Shown: positions 1,671 through 27,132 of the stretch, one piece after another
Position numbering within the stretch: the stretch's first letter is position 1
Layout of the letters: the number at the start of each line of letters is the position of its first letter
DNA from: Candidatus Bathyarchaeota archaeon
GTDB lineage: Archaea > Thermoproteota > Bathyarchaeia > TCS64
NCBI GenBank assembly: GCA_043826455.1
Contig: JBDRQD010000058.1
Span: forward strand, 1-29,391
Length of the DNA: 29,391 bases
Direction: 5' to 3'
The notes under the pieces: model-generated
Databases searched by the model: none
Told to the model about the DNA's origin: nothing
Seen by the model: only the letters and a program-made list of their open reading frames with translations
Translations under genes and position numbers: made by a program

Positions 1671-3482
1671 CTACCGGACGCCTCCTCCTCCGCCTCCGAA
1701 CCCGCCTCCCCCTCCGAACCCGCCTCCGCCGCCTCCGCCTCCCCTGCCGCCTCCGCCTCCCCTGCTGGGGATGGCGGCTGTAGTTATTGGGCGGAACATG
1801 TAGAACATTACAGGCGCGAATGCGGCGGGCACGTAGGGTATCTTCAGGTCCTGCATGGCCTCGGCCACCTTCTTGCCGACGCCCAGGCTCGTTCCGTAGA
1901 TGAGCCAAATACCCCACATGTGGAGGTCCTCGGTGCCGTAGCGCTGGAGCTGGCTGAAGTCGCTCAGGTGACTCCTGAAGGCGTCCCACTCCAGCTTCTC
2001 CTTGTAGGCGTCCTCCTTCCACCGGCCGAAGAGGGTGCTAGGGAAGACCAAGGCTATGATGGACTGTGTGAAGGGGATTACGGCGAGGCCCATGGCCGCG
2101 AATAGGAAGCTGTGGACGTTGGGGTTACCTATGAGCATGACGACGGGCACGAAGAATAGGAGGACGGATAGGACCACCATGGGCAGTATCCTCGGCCTGC
2201 CATTATAGGTGAAGGCGTCCGAGAGGCTCTTGTCGGCCCCTGACGTGATGTCGTTGTAATCTCTCTGCAGCCTCGCCACCTTGAGGGCGATGGCGTCGTC
2301 CTTACCGACCGCCTTCGCCAGGCCCCTCATGTGCTCCGTGTTCACTTTGTTGTTTACGGAGAGGCTTCTGAGGAAGCCCATCACCTTTTTCTCGTACTTG
2401 TCTAGGCCGCCGTCATCCAGAAGGTCGATGACCAGGTCCTCCTCGCCTGTCATGGTGATACTGATCTTCTTTCTCTCGTGGAGGTCAAGGAGTGTGGCGT
2501 ATAGGCCATCATCGTCGAAGTCTCTGGCGTCGTTCTTGAATATGAGGTTCACCAGCCAGGGTTTTCTGTCGGGGTTAGGTGGGGTGCTCAGGTAGGTGGG
2601 CACGGTGAAGTCCTTCTCTTCCCCGAACCGTTTGTATAGCACGTAGAATAGGGCGGGGAACGCGAAGCCGGCAAGCCTGTTGATCCACATGACGGCGGAG
2701 GCCGCGTAGTACTGGAGGCTGTACCCCATGTTGGCGTTCTCCGTCTTGGCCCTCACGTCGGCCACGTAGCTCTCGAAGCCCTGGAACGTGTTGGTGCCCT
2801 TCATGAGTATCTCCACCTCCAGGAGCTCGTTCTCGGCCGCCGCCCCCTCCAGGACCACTCTGTCCGCGTAGTCAGTCCTTTTGAGGGTGGGTGGGTGCGG
2901 GTACAGCTTCTCTACATACCCCGGCTCCATGAGCACGATCTTGACGGACTTGTAGGGCAGGTGCTCGCTGGCCAGCTTCAGGTTGAGGTGCCAGTCATTG
3001 AGGTCCTGCTCGATAGGTGGGTGCACACTGTAAACATATGTTACGGTGTATGTCCCGGGGCTGTAGTAGTTTGGGTTGAAGGCCCCAGCCTCGTTGTCAT
3101 ACGCCAGCGAATCAATTGTGTAGATTTCTGAGCCACCGGAAGGTGCCCCGTTCAACATGTGCACGATGCCCCTGTTATCCTTCAAGTAAGCCGATGTGCC
3201 CGGAGGGTTCTTGACAGTGATCAACCTGACGTGAGCGCTGTTAATGCTAGACATTACCAGCGGGGCATCCCAGTTCCTGTACAGGAAACGCTTGCCCCCA
3301 ACGTTGAGGGTATAGGTGAAGTCCTCAGCCAGGGTGCCGTTGGGGTACAGGGTGGCCACGTACTCCTTCACGTAGGCCTCCTCTGTGAAGACCCCTGAGA
3401 GTATCTGGGGCAGCACGAGGCCCAGGACGGCTAGGCCCAGCGCCAGCGCGAGGAACCTGGTCAGCTGCTGTGTCTCAGCCAT
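1671..3482 (-). CDS. DUF2207 family membrane protein with Gly-rich C-tail
   Basis: N-terminal TM/signal, extracellular domain, 'ATLLDL..RKKI', TM pair, 'W.AFR.HL.DFS....W..WLIYG.SLGV', tail GGGGFGGGGGGVR. Overlaps the end of lemA. Confidence 0.85.
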   Translation of the reverse strand: MAETQQLTRFLALALGLAVLGLVLPQILSGVFTEEAYVKEYVATLYPNGTLAEDFTYTLNVGGKRFLYRNWDAPLVMSSINSAHVRLITVKNPPGTSAYLKDNRGIVHMLNGAPSGGSEIYTIDSLAYDNEAGAFNPNYYSPGTYTVTYVYSVHPPIEQDLNDWHLNLKLASEHLPYKSVKIVLMEPGYVEKLYPHPPTLKRTDYADRVVLEGAAAENELLEVEILMKGTNTFQGFESYVADVRAKTENANMGYSLQYYAASAVMWINRLAGFAFPALFYVLYKRFGEEKDFTVPTYLSTPPNPDRKPWLVNLIFKNDARDFDDDGLYATLLDLHERKKISITMTGEEDLVIDLLDDGGLDKYEKKVMGFLRSLSVNNKVNTEHMRGLAKAVGKDDAIALKVARLQRDYNDITSGADKSLSDAFTYNGRPRILPMVVLSVLLFFVPVVMLIGNPNVHSFLFAAMGLAVIPFTQSIIALVFPSTLFGRWKEDAYKEKLEWDAFRSHLSDFSQLQRYGTEDLHMWGIWLIYGTSLGVGKKVAEAMQDLKIPYVPAAFAPVMFYMFRPITTAAIPSRGGGGGRGGGGGGGGFGGGGGFGGGGGGVR

Positions 3483-4047
3483 CTGGGTTCACCGAGACGT
3501 CCGGCGGCTTCTGTATGGCCTCCTCGAACTCCAGGTAGCCCAGCTTGGCTGCCTTCATGGCTCCAGCTATCAGGTTGCTGGGGAAGACATCGATCATGGT
3601 GTTGAATTCCTGCACCACGTTGTTGTATGTGTACCTGTGGCGGGCGATCTCGTCCTCCACGTTCACGATGGCCTCCATGAGCTTGGCCACGTTCTCGCTT
3701 GCCTTCAGGTCAGGGTACGCCTCGGCCACGGCCAGCAAGTTGTTCACTATCTCCCGGCTCTTCCTATCGATGTCGTTGAGGCCGCTGGCCCCCGCGTCTC
3801 CGACGCCGGCCCTGAGCCTGGCTATGCTCTCGAATATCTCCCGTTCGTGCTTCACGTAGCCCTTGACGGCGCCCAGGAGCTGCTCCACCATGTCCAGCCG
3901 CTTCTTCAGGGCCACCTTGATCTGCCCCATGTTGGCGTCGGCCGCGTTCCTGTACTTCACCAGCCTATTGTAGATGTTTACGAGTTCCCACAGGAGGGCT
4001 AACACGACGCCTATCAGAACGTAGTATATTGCCTGCATACTACTCAC
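3475..4047 (-). CDS. lemA: LemA family protein
   Basis: N-terminal TM, YNRLV...I.V.LKKR.D, AVAEAYPDLKASEN, YNNVV.EFN..I..FPSNLIA. Confidence 0.95.
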   Translation of the reverse strand: MSSMQAIYYVLIGVVLALLWELVNIYNRLVKYRNAADANMGQIKVALKKRLDMVEQLLGAVKGYVKHEREIFESIARLRAGVGDAGASGLNDIDRKSREIVNNLLAVAEAYPDLKASENVAKLMEAIVNVEDEIARHRYTYNNVVQEFNTMIDVFPSNLIAGAMKAAKLGYLEFEEAIQKPPDVSVNPDG

Positions 4048-12113: not shown

Positions 12114-13526
12114 ATGGATTTGACTGACTTCTCTGTGACCCGAGAATGGATCGAGGAAAACGTTCCAAGGTACATGCAGGAGGGCAGGATGCCCGGCTTC
12201 AGCCTAGCAGTGGTTAAGGACTGCGAAACGGTCTACGCTGAGGGCTTCGGCTCCAGGGACCCGGACAAGGGCCTGCCTGCGACGCCTGACACCCTCTACG
12301 GCATCGGCAGCATAACTAAGAGCTTCGTCGCCATCGCGGTGATGCAGCTCGTGGAGCAGGGCAAGCTCGGCGTCGAGGACCCTGTCAGCGACCACATCCC
12401 CTTCAGGCTTGGGCTGCCCGGAAACCCCATAAGAGTACACCACCTGCTGACCCACAGCCTGGGTCTGCCCAGCCTGGCCACCAGCACAGTAGCCCTGTAC
12501 AGGGGCATTGGAGCGGACACGGGTATCCCGTGGGGCGGCGTGGACGACTTCTACAGGCTTGTGAACGGGGCTCAGAGCGAGGTGCTGTTCCCCCCGGGTG
12601 AGCGGTTCTTCTATCATAACGCGGCGTGGAGGATGCTAGGTCATATAGTGCAGGAGAAGTCGGGGATGCCGTTCCACAGGTACGTCAAGGAGAAGGTGAT
12701 GAACCCCCTCGGCATGAGGAGGAGCACCATGAACATCGAGGAGTTCAACGCTGACCCCGACCACATAGTACCCCACTGGAAGAAGCCAGACGGCAGGGTG
12801 GAGCCCAGCAGGTTCCCGTACCCGAACCCGGAGGACAACCCAGAGTTCAGCTTCATCGCCGCAGCAGGGGGCATCGCCAGCAGCGTCAACGAGATGGCCG
12901 AGTACCTGAAGGCGCAGATCGACGGCGGCAGGAGCGGGGGCGGGCCGATGAGCGAGGAAAGTTTCAGGAGAGCCCACACGCTCCACGTGAGACGGCCAGA
13001 CGGATACTACGGGCTGCACGGCTACGGGTACGGCCTGGATGTCACACCCGGCTTCCTGGGCCACAATATGCTGGGGCACGGAGGAAGCATACTGGTCTCC
13101 ACGGCCTACATGGCCTTCATCCCGGACATGGGGGCAGGGGTGGTGATGATGGGTAACAGCGCCAAGCTGCCCTACGAGGAGATAGCGGAGTCCGTGTTCG
13201 CCACCATGATGGGCCGCGAGCCCTCGGAGGTGATACCGTCCATCGTGGTGAAGAACAGGATGAGTGAGCTGGCGGGCAACTATGAGATATACAGGGGCAT
13301 CGAGAAGGTGCGGGTGGTGAGGCGGGGCGGGATGCTGTACCTGGAGCAGAAGGACGAGTTCACGGACGCCCTTGTGCCTCTCATACCGGAGGACCTGACG
13401 CTGGAGTCCACGATGTTCTACGCGTTGACGGACGGAGTTAAGGCGCCTGTAGAGTTCGTGGTTCACGGTGGCGGACGTGTAGATCTTTTCGTGGAGAGGT
13501 ACTGCTACCACAAGAAGAACGTTTAA
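12114..13526 (+). CDS. Serine hydrolase, beta-lactamase/PRP family (Pab87/CubicO-like peptidase with C-terminal oligomerisation domain)
   Basis: SxxK (SITK), LLTHSLG, YxN (YHN), HGG. The C-terminal 'G.YE.YRG...V...GG.LYL...PLIPE...ERY.YHK' resembles the Pab87 octamerisation domain. Confidence 0.9.
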   Translation: MDLTDFSVTREWIEENVPRYMQEGRMPGFSLAVVKDCETVYAEGFGSRDPDKGLPATPDTLYGIGSITKSFVAIAVMQLVEQGKLGVEDPVSDHIPFRLGLPGNPIRVHHLLTHSLGLPSLATSTVALYRGIGADTGIPWGGVDDFYRLVNGAQSEVLFPPGERFFYHNAAWRMLGHIVQEKSGMPFHRYVKEKVMNPLGMRRSTMNIEEFNADPDHIVPHWKKPDGRVEPSRFPYPNPEDNPEFSFIAAAGGIASSVNEMAEYLKAQIDGGRSGGGPMSEESFRRAHTLHVRRPDGYYGLHGYGYGLDVTPGFLGHNMLGHGGSILVSTAYMAFIPDMGAGVVMMGNSAKLPYEEIAESVFATMMGREPSEVIPSIVVKNRMSELAGNYEIYRGIEKVRVVRRGGMLYLEQKDEFTDALVPLIPEDLTLESTMFYALTDGVKAPVEFVVHGGGRVDLFVERYCYHKKNV

Positions 13527-16102: not shown

Positions 16103-17107
16103 CTACCAGCCCGTTGGCTGCCCAACGCGGAGCAGGGTGTATAGCCGGTCCCCGGGGTAGACGAGACGCTGGGGATACATGGTATGGACGACGCCGGGGA
16201 TCGGGCTTGTGACCTCAGCCAGGGTCGAGCCGTCCAGGTCGGTGATCCGGCCTATGGTCTGGCCCACGGCTAGGATATCACCCTGATCAGCGATGGCGTA
16301 GAAGACACCGGCCTTTGGGGCAGAGACCCCCACCCACTCCATGTCCAGGTACCGCTGGTTCACGGGTTTAACGGGTTCGCCGTCCATCACCCCATAGTGC
16401 TTCAGGAGGTTCAAAGTGCCATCCACGTGGCACTGGACATACTTCTCCAGGGGCTGAGTCCTGTACCCCAATCCCGCCTCACTGATGATGCTGGGCACCC
16501 CCGCCCTCACCGCCTCAAATATGAGGGTCCCGGGGCTGGTGTGCCCGATCTCGGGGGTCCCCGGCAGGACGTACTCCAGGCCGAAGACCCGGGCCATCTC
16601 ACCGGTGGTCTCGTCTATGGGCCCGCCCACCCGGAGCTGGATAGTGTGGACCAGGTGGCTCTCTGGGAGGTCTCCCCCTCTGAAGTCCACGTGCATGTCG
16701 CACGTCCTGAGCATGGTGAAGAGGGTGTGGGCGATCCTGTCGGTCAGGCTCCCCTCTGGGTTGCCGGGGAACACGTTGTTGAGGTTCTTGCCGTCGAAGG
16801 GGGTAAGGCCGCTGCTCCGTAGGTTAAACCACCTTGTGCGCCACTGGAAGCTGTACATGTTCACCACGGGCACCGAGATGAATCGACCCTTCAGCTGCTC
16901 CGGCTGAAGCATCCTGTAGAGCCTCGAGGCGGCCTCGACGCCGCAGTACTCCGTGGGGTACAGTCCGCCGGTGACCATGAGGGTGGGGCCGGGCTCGTTG
17001 CCGTTGACGACTCCGAAGGGCATCTTGACGGTGACGGCCAGGTTGTCCTCTATCGTCACGTAGCCGAAGGATTTAGACCCTGGCTTCACATTCAGTGGCT
17101 CAAACAT
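16103..17107 (-). CDS. Succinylglutamate desuccinylase/aspartoacylase (M14 AstE/AspA) family protein with degenerate Zn site
   Basis: GPTL.VTGG..(YPTE), PVVN, NLNNVFPG, DFRGGD, SEAG, and a C-terminal biotinyl-lipoyl-like domain. Confidence 0.85.
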   Translation of the reverse strand: MFEPLNVKPGSKSFGYVTIEDNLAVTVKMPFGVVNGNEPGPTLMVTGGLYPTEYCGVEAASRLYRMLQPEQLKGRFISVPVVNMYSFQWRTRWFNLRSSGLTPFDGKNLNNVFPGNPEGSLTDRIAHTLFTMLRTCDMHVDFRGGDLPESHLVHTIQLRVGGPIDETTGEMARVFGLEYVLPGTPEIGHTSPGTLIFEAVRAGVPSIISEAGLGYRTQPLEKYVQCHVDGTLNLLKHYGVMDGEPVKPVNQRYLDMEWVGVSAPKAGVFYAIADQGDILAVGQTIGRITDLDGSTLAEVTSPIPGVVHTMYPQRLVYPGDRLYTLLRVGQPTGW

Positions 17108-17108
17108 C

Positions 17109-18086
17109 TCAGTGTATCTCCCTGATGTCCTTCCCTATCTCGTAGACCACGTCCCCCTGCCAGATGGCCGGACTCGTCACCATGTGCACCACACCATCAG
17201 TGGGCACTGTGATCTCCTCCAACGTCTCCCCGAAAAGGTCCTTGATAACCCCCAGCTCCTGGCCCTCCTCCACCATGTCCCCCGCCCGGACGTGGCTGAT
17301 GAAGAAGCCGCCGTGCTCAGCGTACAGGTGGTACGGGTTGAACACCTTGGCCCTGGAGGGCACCAGTGGCTCGCCCTCCATCATGCCCAGCCTCATCATC
17401 ACGTTCCTGCAGCCCCGGACCACCTCCGAGACGATGTCGCTCTGGCACCTGCCCATGCCGCCGGCCTCGGTGCCCACCGTCACGGGGAACCTCATAGTGC
17501 TTGTGGATGGCCTTGGCAGGCTCTCCCGTATCCACTCCCACCCGAAGGCGCGGCAAAGGTCCAGGTTCAGCCCATCCTTCTCCCTGTCACCGGTCATCCT
17601 GTACATGGTGCCCGTCAGCAGGTCCTCCTCTATGTCACCGCCGTGGAGGTTCAGCCGGTAATCCGCCTGGCAGAGCACCTCCCTGTACAAGGTGGTGGTG
17701 ACATAGTATGTGATCTTGGGGGGCCCCGAGCCTCCCCGAGGTATCTCCTCCACATAATAGCCTGTTAGGTCCCTGTAGTCAACGGGGTTTCCGTGCATCC
17801 ACCGGGCCTCGAAGGCCAGGGTGTTCACCATGGGCACCAGGATGACCTGGCCGTCGATGTCCCCTGGCTCCAGGGTCTTCATGAGCTCCAGGATCCCGGC
17901 GGGGCCGTTGTACTCTGAGCCGTGCTCGCCCCCGTTGATGACCAGGGTGGGGCCGCTGCCCGCACCGTTGACGAGCATCACGGGTATCTGGTGGCGGCCC
18001 GCGGGACGATCAGCTATGCTTAGATAGCCTTTCACCGTCTCCCCCGGCCTGGCCTCTAGCTTCTGGACCTTGAGAACGTCAGACAT
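17109..18086 (-). CDS. Succinylglutamate desuccinylase/aspartoacylase (M14 AstE/AspA) family protein
   Basis: GPTLVINGGEHGSEYNG, PMVN, NLHGGD, TEAG, C-terminal hybrid domain. Start reassigned to ATG 18086. Confidence 0.88.
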   Translation of the reverse strand: MSDVLKVQKLEARPGETVKGYLSIADRPAGRHQIPVMLVNGAGSGPTLVINGGEHGSEYNGPAGILELMKTLEPGDIDGQVILVPMVNTLAFEARWMHGNPVDYRDLTGYYVEEIPRGGSGPPKITYYVTTTLYREVLCQADYRLNLHGGDIEEDLLTGTMYRMTGDREKDGLNLDLCRAFGWEWIRESLPRPSTSTMRFPVTVGTEAGGMGRCQSDIVSEVVRGCRNVMMRLGMMEGEPLVPSRAKVFNPYHLYAEHGGFFISHVRAGDMVEEGQELGVIKDLFGETLEEITVPTDGVVHMVTSPAIWQGDVVYEIGKDIREIH

Positions 18087-18144
18087 GGTGTAATCTAGCC
18101 CTGAAGCGAATATGGCTTTTATGCCCACGCGGATAACTGAAACC

Positions 18145-19041
18145 ATGGCTGACAGGCTCAAGGGCAAGGTGGCCGTGGTGACGGGCTCCGGCAGGGGCTT
18201 CGGCAGAGCCATGGCGCTGGCCTACGCATCAGAGGGTGCAAGGGTGGTCTCCGTGGCCCGAACAATTGATGAGCTGCGGCAGACGGAGGCCATGATCCGT
18301 GAGGCGGGCGGCGAAGCATACACGGTTGAGGCCGACCTGGCCACGGACGAGGGGCTCAACAGGGTCGTCGACGAGGCCCTGAGCGCCTACAGTGGCGTCG
18401 ATGTGCTGGTGAACAACGCGGCCACCAGCCCCTGGCTCACCCTGGAAGAGACAACCCTGACACACTGGGATAGAGTGATGGCTGTGAACCTACGGGCACC
18501 CTTCGCCCTCTCCAAGGTCCTAGCACCTATCATGGCTGGGCGTGGGGGTGGAGCCATCATCAACGTCAGCAGCAGGTCCGCTGAGCTCGGCTTCGTCGCC
18601 GAGACAGCCTACTGCCCCAGTAAGTACGGCCTAGAGGGCCTCACCCAGTGCCTGGCACTGGAGCTGAGGACGCGGAACATAGCCGTGAACAGCCTCAACG
18701 TGGCTGCACCGCCGGGTAAGAGGCTCAAGCCCACAGAGCTCACCATCAGGGAGGCCGAGGCTATGCCATACGATGTCAAGTCGCTCTATGCTGATGACTG
18801 GGGCATGGCTGAACACTTCCGTGATGCCTGGACCTTCCTGGCCCTGCAGGACGGCTCGGGCATCACAGGCCAGAGGCTGGGCACGGGAGAGCTGGCCAGG
18901 GTCCTCAAGGAGGAGGGCGAGGCCGCCGCCTATCACCGCTGGAGGGGCAAGCTGACCCAGGCGGTCTACACGCCCATCCCGTGGCCCGAGAAGGCGCGGT
19001 ACCAGACCCGGGAAGGGGGCTGGAGGGAGCTAGTCTTCTAG
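18145..19041 (+). CDS. SDR family NAD(P)-dependent oxidoreductase
   Basis: TGSGRGFG, LVNNAA, catalytic Ser and YCPSK. Has a C-terminal extension. Start reassigned to ATG 18145. Confidence 0.92.
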   Translation: MADRLKGKVAVVTGSGRGFGRAMALAYASEGARVVSVARTIDELRQTEAMIREAGGEAYTVEADLATDEGLNRVVDEALSAYSGVDVLVNNAATSPWLTLEETTLTHWDRVMAVNLRAPFALSKVLAPIMAGRGGGAIINVSSRSAELGFVAETAYCPSKYGLEGLTQCLALELRTRNIAVNSLNVAAPPGKRLKPTELTIREAEAMPYDVKSLYADDWGMAEHFRDAWTFLALQDGSGITGQRLGTGELARVLKEEGEAAAYHRWRGKLTQAVYTPIPWPEKARYQTREGGWRELVF

Positions 19042-21262: not shown

Positions 21263-22204
21263 CTACATCTTCCGGGGTCTCTTGGGGACGGCCAAGTCCG
21301 CTGCCCCCATCTCTGAGAGCCGTGCCTCGGGCCAGTTCTCCTCCACGATCCCTATGAGCCGTTCAGCGTACACCACCTTGTCCCGGGCCAGCTTCTCCAG
21401 TCCCGCCCCCCAAGGCTTGTAGAGGGCGCCGACGCCGGGCCCCGGCTCTATCTTGAAGTAGCAGGGAGAGCAGACCCGCGCCATCTCCGGGGTCTCGTAT
21501 ATCCTGTTGAAGCCGCCCCAGGCGTCGAAGAGCCAGACGTGGAGGTCCATGGGTATCTTGACCGCCTGCCTTATGGCTGCCAACTGTGGCAGGGTGAGGT
21601 CGCCCACGGGGTTGAAGGTGTCGGCCCCCAGCGTCTCCAGCACCTTGGCGCCCGCCGGGTTAGCGTGGCCCGCGAAGATGCTGAGCTTGAACACCACGTC
21701 TCTGGGTATCATGCCCCGCTTCCTGAGCTCGTTTACAGCGTAGAGACCGCCCTCGCCTACGACGAGGAACCCCTTGAAGCCCAGTTCGATGCAGTGGCGT
21801 ATATCGTCAACCACCTCGATGAGACCCTTCATGCCCCTGTACCTGATGCCGCATAGGCCCCCCTCCGGTGTGGCCACTTGGCGCCCCGTGTCCCACAGCG
21901 CCCTGGGGCCAGGGGTGAGGATGACCTCCAGGTCGGCGTCGTGGGCCACCTGGGCGAACTCCTCAAGCTCGCTGTCGCTGAGAAGCGTTGACCCCATCAC
22001 GGTGCTTATGAGCCTGTGGACGGGCACGTCCCGCCTGTCCATCTCGTCCACCAGGGCCCTGAGCACGGAGAGGTTCTCCACGCCAGATATCTCGATGCGG
22101 TAATTAGCCCCGTCGGGGAAGGTTGTGCTTGAGGAGGGGAGGCCGTAGGCGTCGCCCTCGGGTAGTCCTATCTCGGCCAGCATCTTGGCCGTCTCTTTAA
22201 GCAT
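21263..22204 (-). CDS. Uncharacterised TIM-barrel protein (U32-peptidase-like family)
   Basis: Pattern 'G..GFLV..EG.L', 'K.S.F....NP.....LE.LGAD..N...DL.L..LA.IR....P.D' recalls U32-like barrels. Confidence 0.6.
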   Translation of the reverse strand: MLKETAKMLAEIGLPEGDAYGLPSSSTTFPDGANYRIEISGVENLSVLRALVDEMDRRDVPVHRLISTVMGSTLLSDSELEEFAQVAHDADLEVILTPGPRALWDTGRQVATPEGGLCGIRYRGMKGLIEVVDDIRHCIELGFKGFLVVGEGGLYAVNELRKRGMIPRDVVFKLSIFAGHANPAGAKVLETLGADTFNPVGDLTLPQLAAIRQAVKIPMDLHVWLFDAWGGFNRIYETPEMARVCSPCYFKIEPGPGVGALYKPWGAGLEKLARDKVVYAERLIGIVEENWPEARLSEMGAADLAVPKRPRKM

Positions 22205-22320: not shown

Positions 22321-23805
22321 TCACTGGCTCTCCCGGAAGGGGTGCCTGGAGCTCCGCGCGTTCTCAGCGGCCTCCCGGGCCGTGGGCCTGCCCTCCATGG
22401 CCTTCCGGATGGCGTGCCTCATGGCCTTCAGGTTGTTGATGTACACCCGTCTGCGACGCGAGGCTGAGGGGTGGACGAAGACGTTGGCTATCATCACCAG
22501 CTCATCCGTCTCGGGCAGTATGCCGTCCGCCACGGACATGGCCACGGCCTTGGCCACGGCCTCCTGGGCCGGCCCGTAGACGAAGCTGGCGTCCCTCATA
22601 CCCCTGACGGGCACCGTGGGCACTATGATGGTGGGCGGCTTCACGGCCATGTTGGGCTCCAGTATCACCTGCAGGGCCTCCCGGTCCTTGCTGGGCCTGG
22701 CTAGCGCCTCCGCGTAGGCCTTGCCCACGGGGCCGTCCACCTGGCCTATCAGCAGGTCTATGTGGGCCACCTCGTTGCTGTCGGGGTCCACTAGGGCCTC
22801 ACCTGTCCGCAGCTTGAACTGGTCTATGACAGCGGGGGTGACGTCCACCCTGTAGAACTGTTCCTTGACGGGGCCGGATGGCAGCTTGAACTCCACAGGC
22901 TTCTTGGGTATGAGGCCCAGGTTCTCCAACTCGACCCGGAACTCCTCCCTGAGCTCCCAGGTCACCGTGTCCCCAAGTACTATTGGGCGCCTGGTGGGGC
23001 CCACGTCGTGGCCCATGAAGTTGAGGCACACCTTGGGGCCCTGGGCGCCCGTGGCCACGATGTGGCGGGTGAACTTCTGGAGCCTCCACTGGACTTTTCG
23101 GGCCTCATCCAGCTTCCCTGCCTTGAACTTCTTGTAGAGGTCAAGCCAGTAGGGGGCGACCACGTTGGCTGATGCAAGGATCATGCCCTTGCAGCCCACT
23201 GCCAGGGCTGCCAGGACCACCTCGTCCCAGCCCACCACCACGTCGATCTTATCGCCCACCTTCTCCAGCACCGACATGAGGTACTTGAGGTCGCCGCTGC
23301 TGTCCTTCATGGCGCGGACCGTGCTGCACTCGTCTACTAAGTCTTCGACTACCTGCCATGGGATGTACTGGTTGGTGGCCACCGGTATGTTGTACAGGAC
23401 GAGGGGTATGTCCACGGCGCCGGCTATGCTCACATAGTGGTCGTAGATGCCCTTACCGCCCTTGGGCTTCATGTAGTAGGGGTTGACTATGATGGCGGCG
23501 TCCGCTCCCACGTCCAGGGCGTGCCTGGTGGCGTCTATGACCAGCTTGGTGGCCGTGTCCCCGGTGCCGGCTATGACCGGCACCCTGCCGTTCACCTGGT
23601 CCACGCACACCTCTATGACTCGGGCCCTCTCAGCTTGGGTCATGAGGCTAAACTCGCCCGTGGTGCCGCAGGGCACTATGCCCGTGATACCCTGCTCTAT
23701 GAGCCAGTCCACGAGGTCCCGGAACACGGGCTCGTTGAACTCCTCATGTTTGTCGAAGGGCGTGACCACTGCGGGCAGCACGCCCTCTAGTTTAAAACTT
23801 GACAT
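22321..23805 (-). CDS. Fusion protein: DapA/NAL-family class I aldolase plus C-terminal formaldehyde-activating enzyme (Fae) domain
   Basis: N-terminal part has TPF, GTTGE, PYY, YNIP and the Schiff-base KDSSGD. C-terminal part (~22324-22815) has GEALV...NEVAHIDLLIG, PN..VKP, GPAQ.AVAKAV..SVADGILP, VFVHP.A, AIRKAMEG.P, HPF, all Fae hallmarks. Confidence 0.92.
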   Translation of the reverse strand: MSSFKLEGVLPAVVTPFDKHEEFNEPVFRDLVDWLIEQGITGIVPCGTTGEFSLMTQAERARVIEVCVDQVNGRVPVIAGTGDTATKLVIDATRHALDVGADAAIIVNPYYMKPKGGKGIYDHYVSIAGAVDIPLVLYNIPVATNQYIPWQVVEDLVDECSTVRAMKDSSGDLKYLMSVLEKVGDKIDVVVGWDEVVLAALAVGCKGMILASANVVAPYWLDLYKKFKAGKLDEARKVQWRLQKFTRHIVATGAQGPKVCLNFMGHDVGPTRRPIVLGDTVTWELREEFRVELENLGLIPKKPVEFKLPSGPVKEQFYRVDVTPAVIDQFKLRTGEALVDPDSNEVAHIDLLIGQVDGPVGKAYAEALARPSKDREALQVILEPNMAVKPPTIIVPTVPVRGMRDASFVYGPAQEAVAKAVAMSVADGILPETDELVMIANVFVHPSASRRRRVYINNLKAMRHAIRKAMEGRPTAREAAENARSSRHPFRESQ

Positions 23806-23859: not shown

Positions 23860-24279
23860 CTACTTGTCGGCTTTCTTGGCCGCCTCCAGCCTCTCCCTAA
23901 CCTCGTTCATGAACTCGGGGAAGTCGTACTCCTCGGCGTCGAAGGGTCCCTCCCACCACTCCACGGTGAGTATGTCCGTCTCCGGCAGCAGTATGTGGGG
24001 CACGCCCGCGGGCACGTGGAGGGGCTTCCCCTTGGTGAGAGGGTACTCCACGTTCCGGCCCTTATCCTTGAACACGTACTTGGCTTTACCATCCATGAGG
24101 ATGGAGGTCTGTTCCACCTTGTGTATGTGGTTTCCACGGTACATCCCGGCCCTGGTGTAGAGCAGCGAGTACCACTTCCCCTTGTAGGTGAAGCCTATGG
24201 CCTCGCCGACGTACTTCATCTCTCCGCCGGTCCACCTCTCATAGTCGATGACGTGCTTCTTCGTCACTTTGTCTACCAC
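23860..24279 (-). CDS. Cupin-domain protein
   Basis: RGNHIH..EQ....DG and VPAGVPH cupin metal motifs. Confidence 0.85.
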   Translation of the reverse strand: MVDKVTKKHVIDYERWTGGEMKYVGEAIGFTYKGKWYSLLYTRAGMYRGNHIHKVEQTSILMDGKAKYVFKDKGRNVEYPLTKGKPLHVPAGVPHILLPETDILTVEWWEGPFDAEEYDFPEFMNEVRERLEAAKKADK

Positions 24280-24394: not shown

Positions 24395-25645
24395 TTGGTT
24401 AAGGTCGATATCCCCCACCACTGCTGGTACGAGGACAAACCCCTCACCCTCACCTTCCCCGACGACTGGAAGGTCCACAGGTGCAGGGTGGCCAGCGAGG
24501 GCGCCAAGCCCATGACTGAGAAGCAGATCAAGGCAGCCATACTGAAGCCCGTAGGCCAGAGGCCGCTACCCGAACTGGCCGAGAAGGCCGAGGAGGTGGT
24601 CGTCATCTTCGACGACATGACCCGCCCAACGAAGACGTGGCAGTACACGCCCACAATCTTGGAGACCCTGCACAAGGCTGGGGTCCCGGAGGACAACATC
24701 AGGTTCATCATAGCGCCGGGCACCCACGGCACCTATGGTCGAAGAGACTTTGTGAAGAAGCTGGGCGAGGACACGGTGAGCAGGTACCAGGTCTACAACC
24801 ACAACCCCTACGAGATGCTGGACTACCTGGGGGACACCAGCCACGGCTGCCCTGTCTGGGTGAACAGCGAGGTCATGTCCTGCGACCTAAAGATAGGCGT
24901 CGGCACCGTCCTCTTCCACAGGCTCACGGGGATGAGCGGCGGAGGCAAGCTCATCAGCCCCGGCGTCGCCGGCATCGAGACCATACGGTTTAACCACGGG
25001 GAAGTGGGGGGCTTCGGCCCAGGCAGGACTCCGGACCCGTCCACCGGCTACATGGCCAACGACCAGAACAGGATGAGGCACGACGCTGAAGAGGCTGCAA
25101 GGCTGGCGGGCCTGGACTACAAGATCGACACGGTGCTGAACCTGAACAGGGACCCCCTAGAGCTGTACGCGGGGGACTTCGTGGAGACCCAGCGCCGGGC
25201 ATCCAAGGACGCCATCAGGCTGCACGCCACGGAGAGCCCCGAATCAGACATTGTGGTGGTTGGCAGCTATCACAGGGAGAACGAGCCCTACCTGGGCCTG
25301 TGGCCCGGCCTCAGCACGGTGAAGGAGGGGGGCACCCTGGTGATGGTGAATGACTGCCCAGACGGAGACATCAACCACTGGCTCTTCAACAGGCACGGCA
25401 AGACCATCGGAGCCAGCCTCTGGAACCCCAAGTCTCAGAGGTTACCCAAGGTGAGGCACATGATCATATTCGGCGAGTACCCGTTGAAGAGCTTCTTGAT
25501 GAGGTATGAGGCCGAGCAGGTAACCTGGATCAGGCGGTGGGACGAGGTGGTGGAGGAACTGAGGAACCACCACAAAGCCGGGTCGAAGGTGGCCGTCATC
25601 CCGGACGGCACCAGCTGTATACCCGAGAATACGTTGGTGAGTTAG
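24395..25645 (+). CDS. LarA-superfamily (DUF2088) nickel-pincer-dependent alpha-hydroxy acid racemase/epimerase
   Basis: DDMTRPT, GTH, NH, LG.TS.G.PV.VN, FH..GMSGGGK...PGVAG.ETI..NH, VKEGGTLV...CPDG. Confidence 0.88.
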   Translation: MVKVDIPHHCWYEDKPLTLTFPDDWKVHRCRVASEGAKPMTEKQIKAAILKPVGQRPLPELAEKAEEVVVIFDDMTRPTKTWQYTPTILETLHKAGVPEDNIRFIIAPGTHGTYGRRDFVKKLGEDTVSRYQVYNHNPYEMLDYLGDTSHGCPVWVNSEVMSCDLKIGVGTVLFHRLTGMSGGGKLISPGVAGIETIRFNHGEVGGFGPGRTPDPSTGYMANDQNRMRHDAEEAARLAGLDYKIDTVLNLNRDPLELYAGDFVETQRRASKDAIRLHATESPESDIVVVGSYHRENEPYLGLWPGLSTVKEGGTLVMVNDCPDGDINHWLFNRHGKTIGASLWNPKSQRLPKVRHMIIFGEYPLKSFLMRYEAEQVTWIRRWDEVVEELRNHHKAGSKVAVIPDGTSCIPENTLVS

Positions 25646-25960
25646 ATGAAGAAGGCGATACAGATAGACGACAAGGACAACGTGGCCACGGCCACCGGCG
25701 ACGTGAAGAAAGGGGAGCAGGTGGAGATACTGTCCCCTGAGGGCAAGGTCATCCTCAAGGCTAAGCCTGTGGACGACATAGCCTTCGGCCACAAGCTGAG
25801 CCTCAGAAGGATCAAGATGGGTGAGGAGATCATCAAGTATGGTGAGGTGATAGGGGTCGCCTCCAGGGCGATCCCCGCCGGCGAGTGGGTTCACACCCAC
25901 AACGTGGACAGCGCCAGGCTCAAGACCTCCGGTGAGGAGGTCAGGGGGGTGACTGTGTGA
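25646..25960 (+). CDS. UxaA-family dehydratase/lyase small (SAF) subunit
   Basis: DNVATA, I.FGHK.SL..I..GEEIIKYGEVIG.A...I..GEWVHTHNV. Confidence 0.92.
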   Translation: MKKAIQIDDKDNVATATGDVKKGEQVEILSPEGKVILKAKPVDDIAFGHKLSLRRIKMGEEIIKYGEVIGVASRAIPAGEWVHTHNVDSARLKTSGEEVRGVTV

Positions 25961-27132
25961 CCGAGTTCCTCGGATACCAGAGGCCCGACGGCTCAGTGGG
26001 TGTACGGAACCACCTTCTGGTAATAGCGCCCATTGATTGCAGCTACGAGCCCGCTAAGAAGATCGCGGACCAGGTGCCTGGCGCCGTGGCCATCACCCAG
26101 ACCCACGGCTGCGGGGCCGACGCTATGCTGATCCACAACCTGGTGGGCACAGCGCTAAACCCCAACGTGGCGGGCGTCCTCATCGTCGGCCTAGGCTGCG
26201 AGACCCTCACCGGGGAGATGCTCATGGAGCAGATAGAGCCAAGTGGTAAACCTGTACACAACATCACCATACAGGAGCTCGGCGGCACCCTTAAGACCCA
26301 TGAGAGGGGCGTCAGGCTCCTCCAGGAGATGGCGCAGAACGCGGCGAAGCTGAGGCGTGAGCCCTTCCCCCTGAGCAAGTTGACCCTGGCCGTGGAGTGC
26401 GGGGGCAGCGACGCCACCAGCGGACTGGCCGCCAACCCGGCCGTCGGCGTGGCGGCCGATCTACTCATCGAGGAAGGAGGCAGCGTCATCTTCGGGGAGA
26501 CCCAGGAGATGAGCGGCACCCAGCACCTGCTGGCGCGCCGGGCCGTCAACGACCGGGTGGCCAAGGACGTCTACACCATCATTGAGGCCCAGGAGCACAG
26601 GCTAAAAGCCATGGGGGTAGACAGCCGCTGGATGAGCAAGGGCAACATAGACGGCGGCCTCACCACCATAGAGGAGAAGAGCCTGGGAGCCGTGCGCAAG
26701 GGGGGCACCAAACCCATCCAGGGGGTACTCTTCAATGACTGGGACAGGTTCGACAAGCCTTCCAAGCCTGGCCTGTACATCATGGACGGTACGGGCTGGG
26801 ACGTGCCCAGCGTCACCCACATGGTGGCCGCCGGGGCCCAGGTTGTGTGCTTCACCAGCGGCGCGGGCAGCACCACGGGCCACGCCATCGCTCCAGTCAT
26901 CAAGGTGACTGGGAATCCCCAGACCTATGTTAGGATGACTGACAACATGGACGTCAACGCCGGTACAATCCTGGACGGCTCGGAGAGCCTCAACAGCGTC
27001 GGCCGGAGAATCTTCCAGATGATGGTGGACACCGCAAACGGCAGGCTTACGAAGGCCGAGGCCCTGGGCTACCACGACTACATAGTGTTCAAGAGGAGCA
27101 GAGAAGCCGAGCACCTCCTCGGCCACTGCTGA
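25957..27132 (+). CDS. UxaA/GarD/SuyB-family dehydratase large subunit
   Basis: GY.RPDGSVGVRNH, HGC, GLGCE, ECGGSDATSGLAANPAVG, GNIDGGLTTIEEKSLGA..KGG, APVIKVTGN, MDVNAG. Confidence 0.93.
   Translation: MTEFLGYQRPDGSVGVRNHLLVIAPIDCSYEPAKKIADQVPGAVAITQTHGCGADAMLIHNLVGTALNPNVAGVLIVGLGCETLTGEMLMEQIEPSGKPVHNITIQELGGTLKTHERGVRLLQEMAQNAAKLRREPFPLSKLTLAVECGGSDATSGLAANPAVGVAADLLIEEGGSVIFGETQEMSGTQHLLARRAVNDRVAKDVYTIIEAQEHRLKAMGVDSRWMSKGNIDGGLTTIEEKSLGAVRKGGTKPIQGVLFNDWDRFDKPSKPGLYIMDGTGWDVPSVTHMVAAGAQVVCFTSGAGSTTGHAIAPVIKVTGNPQTYVRMTDNMDVNAGTILDGSESLNSVGRRIFQMMVDTANGRLTKAEALGYHDYIVFKRSREAEHLLGHC

Follow-up and report, generated by a model that had tools for sequence, protein, structure and literature searches.

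Within a stretch of 29,391 nucleotides of the genome of a Candidatus Bathyarchaeota archaeon from sediment (contig JBDRQD010000058.1, positions 1 to 29,391; hereafter the window), a gene at 22321..23805 on the minus strand encodes an aldolase of the dihydrodipicolinate synthase (DHDPS) family fused to a formaldehyde-activating enzyme (Fae). The gene is a single open reading frame (ORF) of 494 codons that begins with ATG and has zero internal stops in its translation. Residues 6-276 (22978..23790) match PF00701 over profile positions 2-272 of 289 (E 1.5e-68, 231 bits), and residues 334-490 (22336..22806) match PF08714 over profile positions 1-158 of 159 (E 1.5e-46, 158.7 bits against a cut-off of 27); both domains score far above their Pfam cut-offs. 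Moreover, the Fae equivalog-domain model TIGR03126 gives 166.7 bits (cut-off 118.05). The connecting segment (residues 277-333, 22807..22977) comprises the end of the C-terminal helices of the barrel and a linker. In a sequence search of the PDB, the Fae part aligned end to end with the solved Fae of M. extorquens (1y5y residues 7-166 of 169, E 4e-27), and the nearest solved relatives of the barrel were all bona fide DHDPS enzymes, the best being 2vc6 (E 8e-49). The translation contains GTTGE (residues 47-51), YNIPVAT (138-144), KDSSGD (167-172) and GWDE (192-195) in the barrel and AHIDL (347-351) and PTVP (396-399) in the Fae domain. Thus Pfam, the translation and the alignments with 1y5y and 2vc6 all agree with the description in an earlier note, made from the letters of this DNA, of an intact 494-residue ORF that joins an aldolase barrel to a full Fae domain.

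The PF00701 barrel has the features expected of a class I pyruvate aldolase, namely a Schiff-base lysine (Lys167), a proton-relay tyrosine (Tyr138) and a Thr-Thr pyruvate-binding motif (Thr48 and Thr49); these roles are those of the corresponding residues of E. coli DHDPS, which we assume carry over to the fusion aldolase. The histidine of the AHID motif (His348) we take to be the catalytic residue of Fae. (A literature search on the roles of the active-site residues of Fae brought nothing relevant.) In an alignment of 80 fusions, comprising the window copy and 79 of the 80 loci fetched (the copy in L042, which is cut by a contig end, was excluded), Lys167, Tyr138, Thr48, Thr49, Trp193 of GWDE, His348 and Asp350 are all invariant (80 of 80 sequences each). 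Four residues of the Fae domain, His348, Asp350, Gln414 and His445, are kept in 79-80 of the 80, and so is Pro396-Thr397 in all of them. The last pair bears on a caveat raised in the earlier note, which was that the Fae motif KVT reads TVP here: the substitution exists, but it is a trait of the family rather than a defect of this copy. We considered whether the Fae domain might be catalytically idle and act as an oligomerisation scaffold for the aldolase, as the use of stable Fae pentamers as a fusion scaffold would allow (PDB 8ub7 and 8 listed companion entries are a Fae-containing chimera) and as the replacement of the NKVT stretch of M. extorquens Fae by PTVP might hint. A score above the equivalog-domain cut-off, the near-invariance of the four residues named above and a PT change that is fixed across the family and so does not look like decay make such an idle domain very unlikely.

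Of 8,000 candidates scored in a protein search, 4,650 were relatives at E ≤ 0.001. At least 120 listed relatives of about 494-501 residues, 57-99% identical to the window protein, all bear both Pfam domains, and for this reason the fusion is no accident of assembly. Where the listed homologues are named at all, they are named either "4-hydroxy-tetrahydrodipicolinate synthase" or "formaldehyde-activating enzyme"; the fusion is real, intact and widely conserved, and mislabelled as DapA or plain Fae. In a collection of species genomes, 420 stretches encode a relative. The best 80 of these 420 loci all hold fusions, and in 79 the match spans at least residues 4 to 491 (the remaining one being L042). 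They belong to Bathyarchaeia and to Asgard archaea (labelled Promethearchaeota, Hodarchaeota, Hermodarchaeota, Odinarchaeota or Thorarchaeota), with one labelled Undinarchaeota and one labelled bacterium. Across 20 fusion copies from Bathyarchaeia and Asgard archaea the mean column identity is 72%, and the segment between the domains is conserved as well, with G278, D279, E284, E288, R290, E292-E294, F317, T323 and P324 invariant. The fusion is thus under strong purifying selection across phyla.

Tandem, diverged copies of the fusion occur in three genomes (G015, G051 and G057). In two of these, two tandem copies are followed by the gene that we call c36 (see below), all on one strand (G015:C13:12726-16709 and G057:C7:3207-7145), and one of the tandem copies in G015 has an in-frame TAG. 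Metatranscriptome contigs from three studies, 85-97% alike, cover parts of the fusion and c36; since contigs assembled from an RNA library may derive from DNA, they are weak evidence. In an RNA run from the probable source study (X22) only bins of c36 were covered and none of the fusion, and we draw no conclusion from it.

Several database names would make the fusion the 4-hydroxy-tetrahydrodipicolinate synthase (DapA) of the organism, with an appended Fae. Consistent with those names, the nearest solved structures are all DHDPS and the dapA equivalog model TIGR00674 gives 202.0, only 4 bits short of its cut-off of 206.15. The arginine with which DHDPS binds aspartate semialdehyde (Arg138 of the E. 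coli enzyme), lying after the YN-P motif, is nonetheless missing: the alignment with 2vc6 sets the DHDPS residues "ynipgrs" over "ynipvat" of the window protein, and across the 80 fusions the corresponding position (143) is Cys in 56, Ala in 15 (the window copy among them), Thr in 6, Leu in 3 and Arg in 0. Moreover, an invariant tryptophan stands in GWDE at a site where E. coli DHDPS has Gly-Asp-Asp. The host genome (2.95 Mb in 81 contigs, 97.7% complete) contains five genes of the DHDPS family including the fusion. One of them, at C30:123546-124538, is a separate dapA that scores 249.8 bits with TIGR00674 and keeps the arginine in YNNPERC; the other three paralogues fall under the cut-off and lack it. 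Because the genome has a true dapA in which the arginine is kept, the fusion gene is free of a role in lysine synthesis. The fusion aldolase, on these sequence criteria, is not the DapA of the lysine pathway, as the earlier note had suspected when it proposed looking for a separate dapA, and we regard the contrary as highly improbable.

We then turn to the one-carbon (C1) genes of the host, whose fusion has its nearest named homologues in Bathyarchaeia. The genome encodes Mch (365 bits), Mer (402 bits, over its cut-off), Mtd (328 bits) and beta-RFAP synthase (189.5 bits), and because all four genes are there the host very probably makes and uses tetrahydromethanopterin (H4MPT), judging from its gene content; the presence of H4MPT genes had been another expectation of the earlier note. 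The fused Fae is the sole Fae found in the genome, and a search with TIGR03128 found no Hps (3-hexulose-6-phosphate synthase) anywhere in this 97.7% complete assembly. With no other Fae and no Hps detected, the fused domain cannot here be serving the Hps of a reverse ribulose monophosphate pathway. Note that four genomes of the same genus (G042, G088, G100 and G120) carry a second, higher-scoring Fae and the window genome only the fused one; the host may truly have lost a second Fae, or the gene may be missing from the assembly.

Of 121 Bathyarchaeia genomes sampled evenly, 65 have a match to Fae and 32 have the fusion proper, which was defined as a match that starts within the first 10 residues of a query made of residues 222-494 (one copy truncated by a contig end was counted too). 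Mch is present in 30 of the 32 genomes that bear the fusion. A second, higher-scoring Fae, apart from the aldolase, is found in 25 of the 32.

The most conserved context of the fusion, which the earlier note had not mentioned, is a partner TIM-barrel gene. In the window this is c36 (21263..22204, minus strand), which encodes a 313-residue protein, lies 116 nt downstream of the fusion on the same strand and has no match in Pfam or NCBIfam. We also took a census of neighbours by our own ORF calling and BLAST clustering in the window and the best 80 loci (81 sources). The most frequent adjacent neighbour, in 55 of the 81, encodes a protein of about 428 residues, c1, which lies directly upstream of the fusion on the same strand in 50 sources and directly downstream in 3 (L026, L028 and L043). 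A third, divergent order of c1 and fusion occurs in G118, G062, G110 and G072. (The locus L066, titled Nanopelagicaceae bacterium, has a typical Asgard-type c2-c1-fusion arrangement; its contig is probably mis-binned or mislabelled.) In the 121-genome sample, c1 is found in 12 of the 32 fusion genomes and in 0 of the 89 others, and c36 in 16 of the 32 versus 9 of the 89, two of the 9 with in-frame stops. One or the other partner is present in 27 of the 32, with both in G100, and all four genomes that have a window-type fusion without c36 (G042, G092, G112 and G116) have c1. Among 80 metagenome loci with c36, the fusion was also present in 6 of 7 in which c36 was 92-95% identical, in 0 of 28 at 75-87% and in 34 of 45 at 62-67%; both same-strand and divergent orders of c36 and the fusion occur. 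In the second c36 clade a neighbour, m9, is a low-molecular-weight phosphatase/ArsC-like protein and not a cupin. The link between the fusion and its partners is strong; because five fusion genomes have neither partner and c36 occurs without the fusion, it is not obligate. A structure prediction for a complex of the fusion with c36 gave a score of 0.00, which counts neither for nor against binding.

We also compared the two partners with known families and folds. For c1, Pfam, NCBIfam and PDB sequences gave no match (a profile search of the PDB returned 0). Its AlphaFold2 model (pLDDT 77.8) has an N-terminal helical domain and a TIM barrel. Foldseek found nothing at E ≤ 0.001 with this model, VIA-align returned a flat list of TIM barrels headed by DUF849 (Z 12.7), from which c1 is assigned to no family, and the ESM Atlas gave nothing usable (scores ≤ 0.89, unrelated families). 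For c36, Pfam and NCBIfam likewise gave no match, and a profile search of the PDB gave chance-level hits only (E ≥ 0.7). The AlphaFold2 model (pLDDT 81.3) is again a barrel; with few exceptions, the proteins at the top of its Foldseek list are class II metal-dependent aldolases (YdjI at E 1.9e-10, with tagatose-bisphosphate and fructose-bisphosphate aldolases; TM 0.48-0.57). In VIA-align the list is flat, with CutC at Z 15.0, YdjI and class II fructose-bisphosphate aldolase at 14.8 and other barrels at 12.5-14; the U32 protein Mk0906 (5d88) stands within that list (Z 13.6, 18% identity). In the Atlas, 28 of 30 feature matches of c36 fall in clusters in which 17-23% of the members carry PF01136 (Peptidase_U32), a family that Pfam detects weakly in 2 of 21 c36 family members (best E 0.097).

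The two partners share the motif FK-[IVL]-S-[IV]-[FY]-x-G-x-x-NP. In a pairwise BLAST comparison c1 and c36 align over 141 residues at E 3e-4, and a tblastn search of the host genome with c1 finds the c36 gene as its only match (E 0.11). Comparison of profiles gave a probability of 6.7% (E 0.0055) with small alignments and of 46% (E 2e-4, 262 columns) with larger ones. A c1 profile had 586 matches at E ≤ 0.001 in a representative library; the best 150 of these consist of c1 proteins or pieces of them, with nothing visible that would connect to c36. From these similarities we think it probable, with moderate confidence, that c1 and c36 are distant homologues.

The remaining genes around the fusion form two divergent groups. 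On the minus strand the row runs from a small cupin-like gene through the fusion and c36 to TruD. The cupin-like gene (23860..24279, minus strand), 54 nt upstream of the fusion, encodes 139 residues and matches Cupin_2 at E 3e-5, below the Pfam cut-off; it occupies the same position in the window, L017, L019, L101 and L104 and is specific to that clade. Divergent from this row, on the plus strand, lie a homologue of LarA-like nickel-pincer 2-hydroxyacid racemases/epimerases (24395..25645; Lar_N E 1.5e-54) and a split dehydratase of the UxaA/GarD family (25646..27132), which consists of a small SAF subunit (25646-25960, E 7e-10) and a catalytic large subunit (25957-27132; GD_AH_second and GD_AH_C, E 2.4e-87). 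The best NCBIfam model for the LarA-like gene is malate racemase, at 206.6 bits against a cut-off of 500, its best solved match is the malate racemase 6d6z, and a LarA-like gene is found close to the fusion in L150, L174 and L178 too. For the dehydratase, TIGR03248 gives 211 bits against a cut-off of 730, and the best solved match is GarD (6u7l, E 1e-52).

If a UxaA/GarD-type dehydratase took a C4 aldonic acid as its substrate, 4-hydroxy-2-oxobutanoate (HOB) would be formed directly, a possibility that we raise with the clade-limited synteny in mind. The local genes of the window clade would lean towards cleavage of HOB derived from hydroxy acids. The catabolic direction assumed in the earlier note gains modest local support from the divergent racemase-like and dehydratase genes, but only in a narrow clade, since this context is found in 7 of the 81 sources (the window and its close relatives L017-L019 and L021-L023). 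The same genes would also suit an aldolase and a Fae with two independent activities, in which the aldolase cleaves a larger 2-keto-3-deoxy acid, for instance the product of a UxaA/GarD-like dehydratase, to pyruvate and a C2-C4 aldehyde, Fae detoxifies free formaldehyde, and the fusion serves co-regulation. Such a division of labour would fit the other DHDPS paralogues of the genome, which also lack the arginine and resemble 2-keto-3-deoxygluconate-type aldolases, and the many fusion genomes that hold another Fae. We nevertheless consider it unlikely: the dehydratase/LarA context is confined to 7 sources, yet the fusion and its linker are conserved across phyla; the invariant Trp193 in the acceptor region would favour a small acceptor, if structures of DHDPS are a guide; and the only other known fusion of Fae, Fae-Hps (NF009833), pairs Fae with an aldolase that handles formaldehyde.

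Elsewhere the surroundings of the fusion vary. It lies beside a PNP/MTA-phosphorylase-like gene and an S-adenosylmethionine (SAM) hydroxide adenosyltransferase gene in L036, L037 and L039, and beside an MtaD-like amidohydrolase gene in L030 and L042; a link to the recycling of methylthioadenosine (MTA) and SAM was set aside as anecdotal, given how few these loci are. In L031 the fusion directly follows a homoserine dehydrogenase gene. Among the Asgard loci L044-L096, 40 have a divergent gene of the UDP-glucose/GDP-mannose dehydrogenase family upstream of c1 and the fusion, and a Bcp-type peroxiredoxin and a nitroreductase lie downstream; this arrangement may simply have been inherited, or may belong to a larger functional unit. 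Further away in the window are two adjacent paralogues of the AstE/AspA type (succinylglutamate desuccinylase/aspartoacylase) followed by a short-chain dehydrogenase/reductase (SDR) gene and a DUF362 gene (16103-18212, minus strand), a protein of beta-lactamase fold that carries a Pab87 octamerisation domain and is of the type of the archaeal D-aminopeptidase-like proteins (12114-13526, plus strand), and a pair of LemA and DUF2207 membrane proteins (1671-4047, minus strand) beside which lies a 440-residue ORF with a weak bactofilin match. (Scans of the window with Rfam models and for tRNAs found no matches.)

On balance, we favour somewhat the idea of a formaldehyde-coupled pyruvate aldolase on the model of Fae-Hps. 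We base it on how the two domains are joined, on their conserved catalytic residues and the lost arginine, on the separate dapA and the H4MPT genes, and on the conservation of the fusion and its linkage to the partner genes. The N-terminal domain would be a Schiff-base (class I) 2-oxo-acid aldolase descended from DapA-like enzymes. Its acceptor would be a small uncharged aldehyde, as we propose because the arginine for aspartate semialdehyde has been lost and a tryptophan is fixed in the acceptor region. The C-terminal domain would be a normal Fae that joins formaldehyde to H4MPT. The two reactions would be coupled, the reversible condensation of pyruvate and formaldehyde to HOB with the reversible condensation of formaldehyde and H4MPT to methylene-H4MPT, such that free formaldehyde would be neither released nor needed. 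The partner, c36 here and the c1 protein in Asgard archaea and some Bathyarchaeia, may work with the enzyme and would probably make or consume its C4 product. We infer pyruvate as donor, formaldehyde as acceptor, the coupling of the domains, the role of the partner and the direction of the reaction. More tentative still, and to our minds doubtful, is a specific form of the proposal, in which Bathyarchaeia and Asgard archaea would hydroxymethylate pyruvate, methylene-H4MPT and pyruvate giving HOB with no free formaldehyde and the product passing to what would be a new family of TIM-barrel enzymes, c1 or c36.

The methylene-H4MPT donor might instead serve hydroxymethyl transfer to another 2-oxo acid, such as 2-oxobutanoate or 2-oxoisovalerate, in a ketopantoate-type reaction that would make the fusion an H4MPT-adapted analogue of PanB. 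The architecture would suit any 2-oxo acid that forms an enamine, and archaea that use H4MPT need C1-transfer routes that bacteria run on folate. A normal PanB in the host genome (362 bits), the almost exclusive use of pyruvate in the DHDPS family, and the unchanged Thr-Thr, Tyr and Lys of the pyruvate site render another 2-oxo acid quite unlikely. That the fusion replaces PanB was accordingly set aside for this genome, as was the idea that it is the only route to homoserine, given that Asd and homoserine dehydrogenase are also encoded; in either case a parallel route is possible.

Several observations weigh against a formaldehyde-coupled pyruvate aldolase. Because Asd, homoserine dehydrogenase and PanB are all present, no obvious biosynthetic gap in the genome calls for such an enzyme. 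The association of Mch with the fusion is weak, Mch being present in 65 of the 89 sampled genomes that lack it. With a second Fae in 25 of 32 fusion genomes, the fused domain should not be taken for the one general Fae of these cells, and may act as a local scavenger. Neither c1 nor c36 accompanies the fusion in 5 of the 32 genomes, c36 occurs without it in 9 of 89, and the fusion is near none of the 28 loci of one c36 clade. That formaldehyde and HOB are the substrates is predicted from the sequence. Finally, the oligomeric states do not match, with a pentamer for Fae in 1y5y (10 chains in 2 entries) and tetramers or dimers for DHDPS enzymes, so that the coexistence of the two assemblies in one protein is puzzling and channelling is putative.

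Bathyarchaeia are among the most abundant microbes of sediments, and eukaryotes have their closest known relatives in the Asgard archaea. The carbon flow of both archaeal groups has been reconstructed from annotation alone, in which the fusion counts as "DapA" or as plain "fae". Were the proposed coupling true, the fusion would add to models of Bathyarchaeia and Asgard archaea a C1-C3 junction, from pyruvate to methylene-H4MPT, that they do not contain. It would also be a natural class I HOB aldolase, for which pathway engineers, according to PMC7918591, now use promiscuous enzymes. In the more tentative form, with pyruvate hydroxymethylated from methylene-H4MPT, it would provide a natural route from the C1 pool of the Wood-Ljungdahl pathway to C4 metabolism at the homoserine/threonine/methionine node, and a natural counterpart of the designed homoserine cycle. 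Moreover, the fusion gives two TIM-barrel protein families of no assigned function a testable context; one of the two has about 1,700 database relatives, with no functional name among the 120 listed.

The fusion itself is apparently unstudied, as the earlier note had supposed: literature searches for Fae together with dihydrodipicolinate synthase or DapA brought up no paper or a single unrelated review, and one for archaeal HOB aldolases a biocatalysis review (PMC7918591), none of them on the fusion. In the accessible parts of PMC10321748 and PMC11631310, fae of Bathyarchaeia is treated as a stand-alone detoxification or C1 gene. Among known systems, the closest in design is Fae-Hps, the bifunctional 5,6,7,8-tetrahydromethanopterin hydro-lyase/3-hexulose-6-phosphate synthase (NF009833), and the analogy drawn in the earlier note is sound as architecture. 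In both, Fae is joined, in archaea that use H4MPT, to an aldolase that makes or takes formaldehyde, by which formaldehyde enters the pterin pool where it arises (as proposed for the window fusion). The differences are that Fae is N-terminal in Fae-Hps and C-terminal here, that Hps has the orotidine 5'-monophosphate decarboxylase fold whereas the window fusion has a Schiff-base pyruvate aldolase of the DHDPS family, and that the carbon partner is ribulose 5-phosphate there and is predicted to be pyruvate here. Consistent with these differences, NF009833 matches the window fusion over profile positions 3-160 of 392 only, which is the Fae part (129.2 bits against a cut-off of 274), and finds no Hps domain.

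With DapA/DHDPS (TIGR00674; 2vc6, 2yxg and 1dhp) the fusion shares the fold, the nearest sequence relationship and the catalytic set of Lys, Tyr and Thr-Thr; unlike them it has no substrate arginine, has the tryptophan of GWDE, falls below the equivalog cut-off and carries a 160-residue Fae domain. With the stand-alone Fae of methylotrophs (M. extorquens, 1y5y and 1y60; TIGR03126) it shares homology over the full length and the His-x-Asp motif, and differs in being fused and in having PTVP for NKVT. The chemistry proposed here, the interconversion of pyruvate plus formaldehyde and HOB, is identical to that of the HOB-aldolase step of the synthetic homoserine cycle and of E. coli YfaU/RhmA, and in the accessible part of PMC7918591 the condensation is described only for the class II YfaU and the designed cycle. 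YfaU, as that part of the source presents it, is a promiscuous, metal-dependent class II enzyme of another fold with no link to a pterin, whereas the window candidate would be a natural class I enzyme that is fused to Fae.

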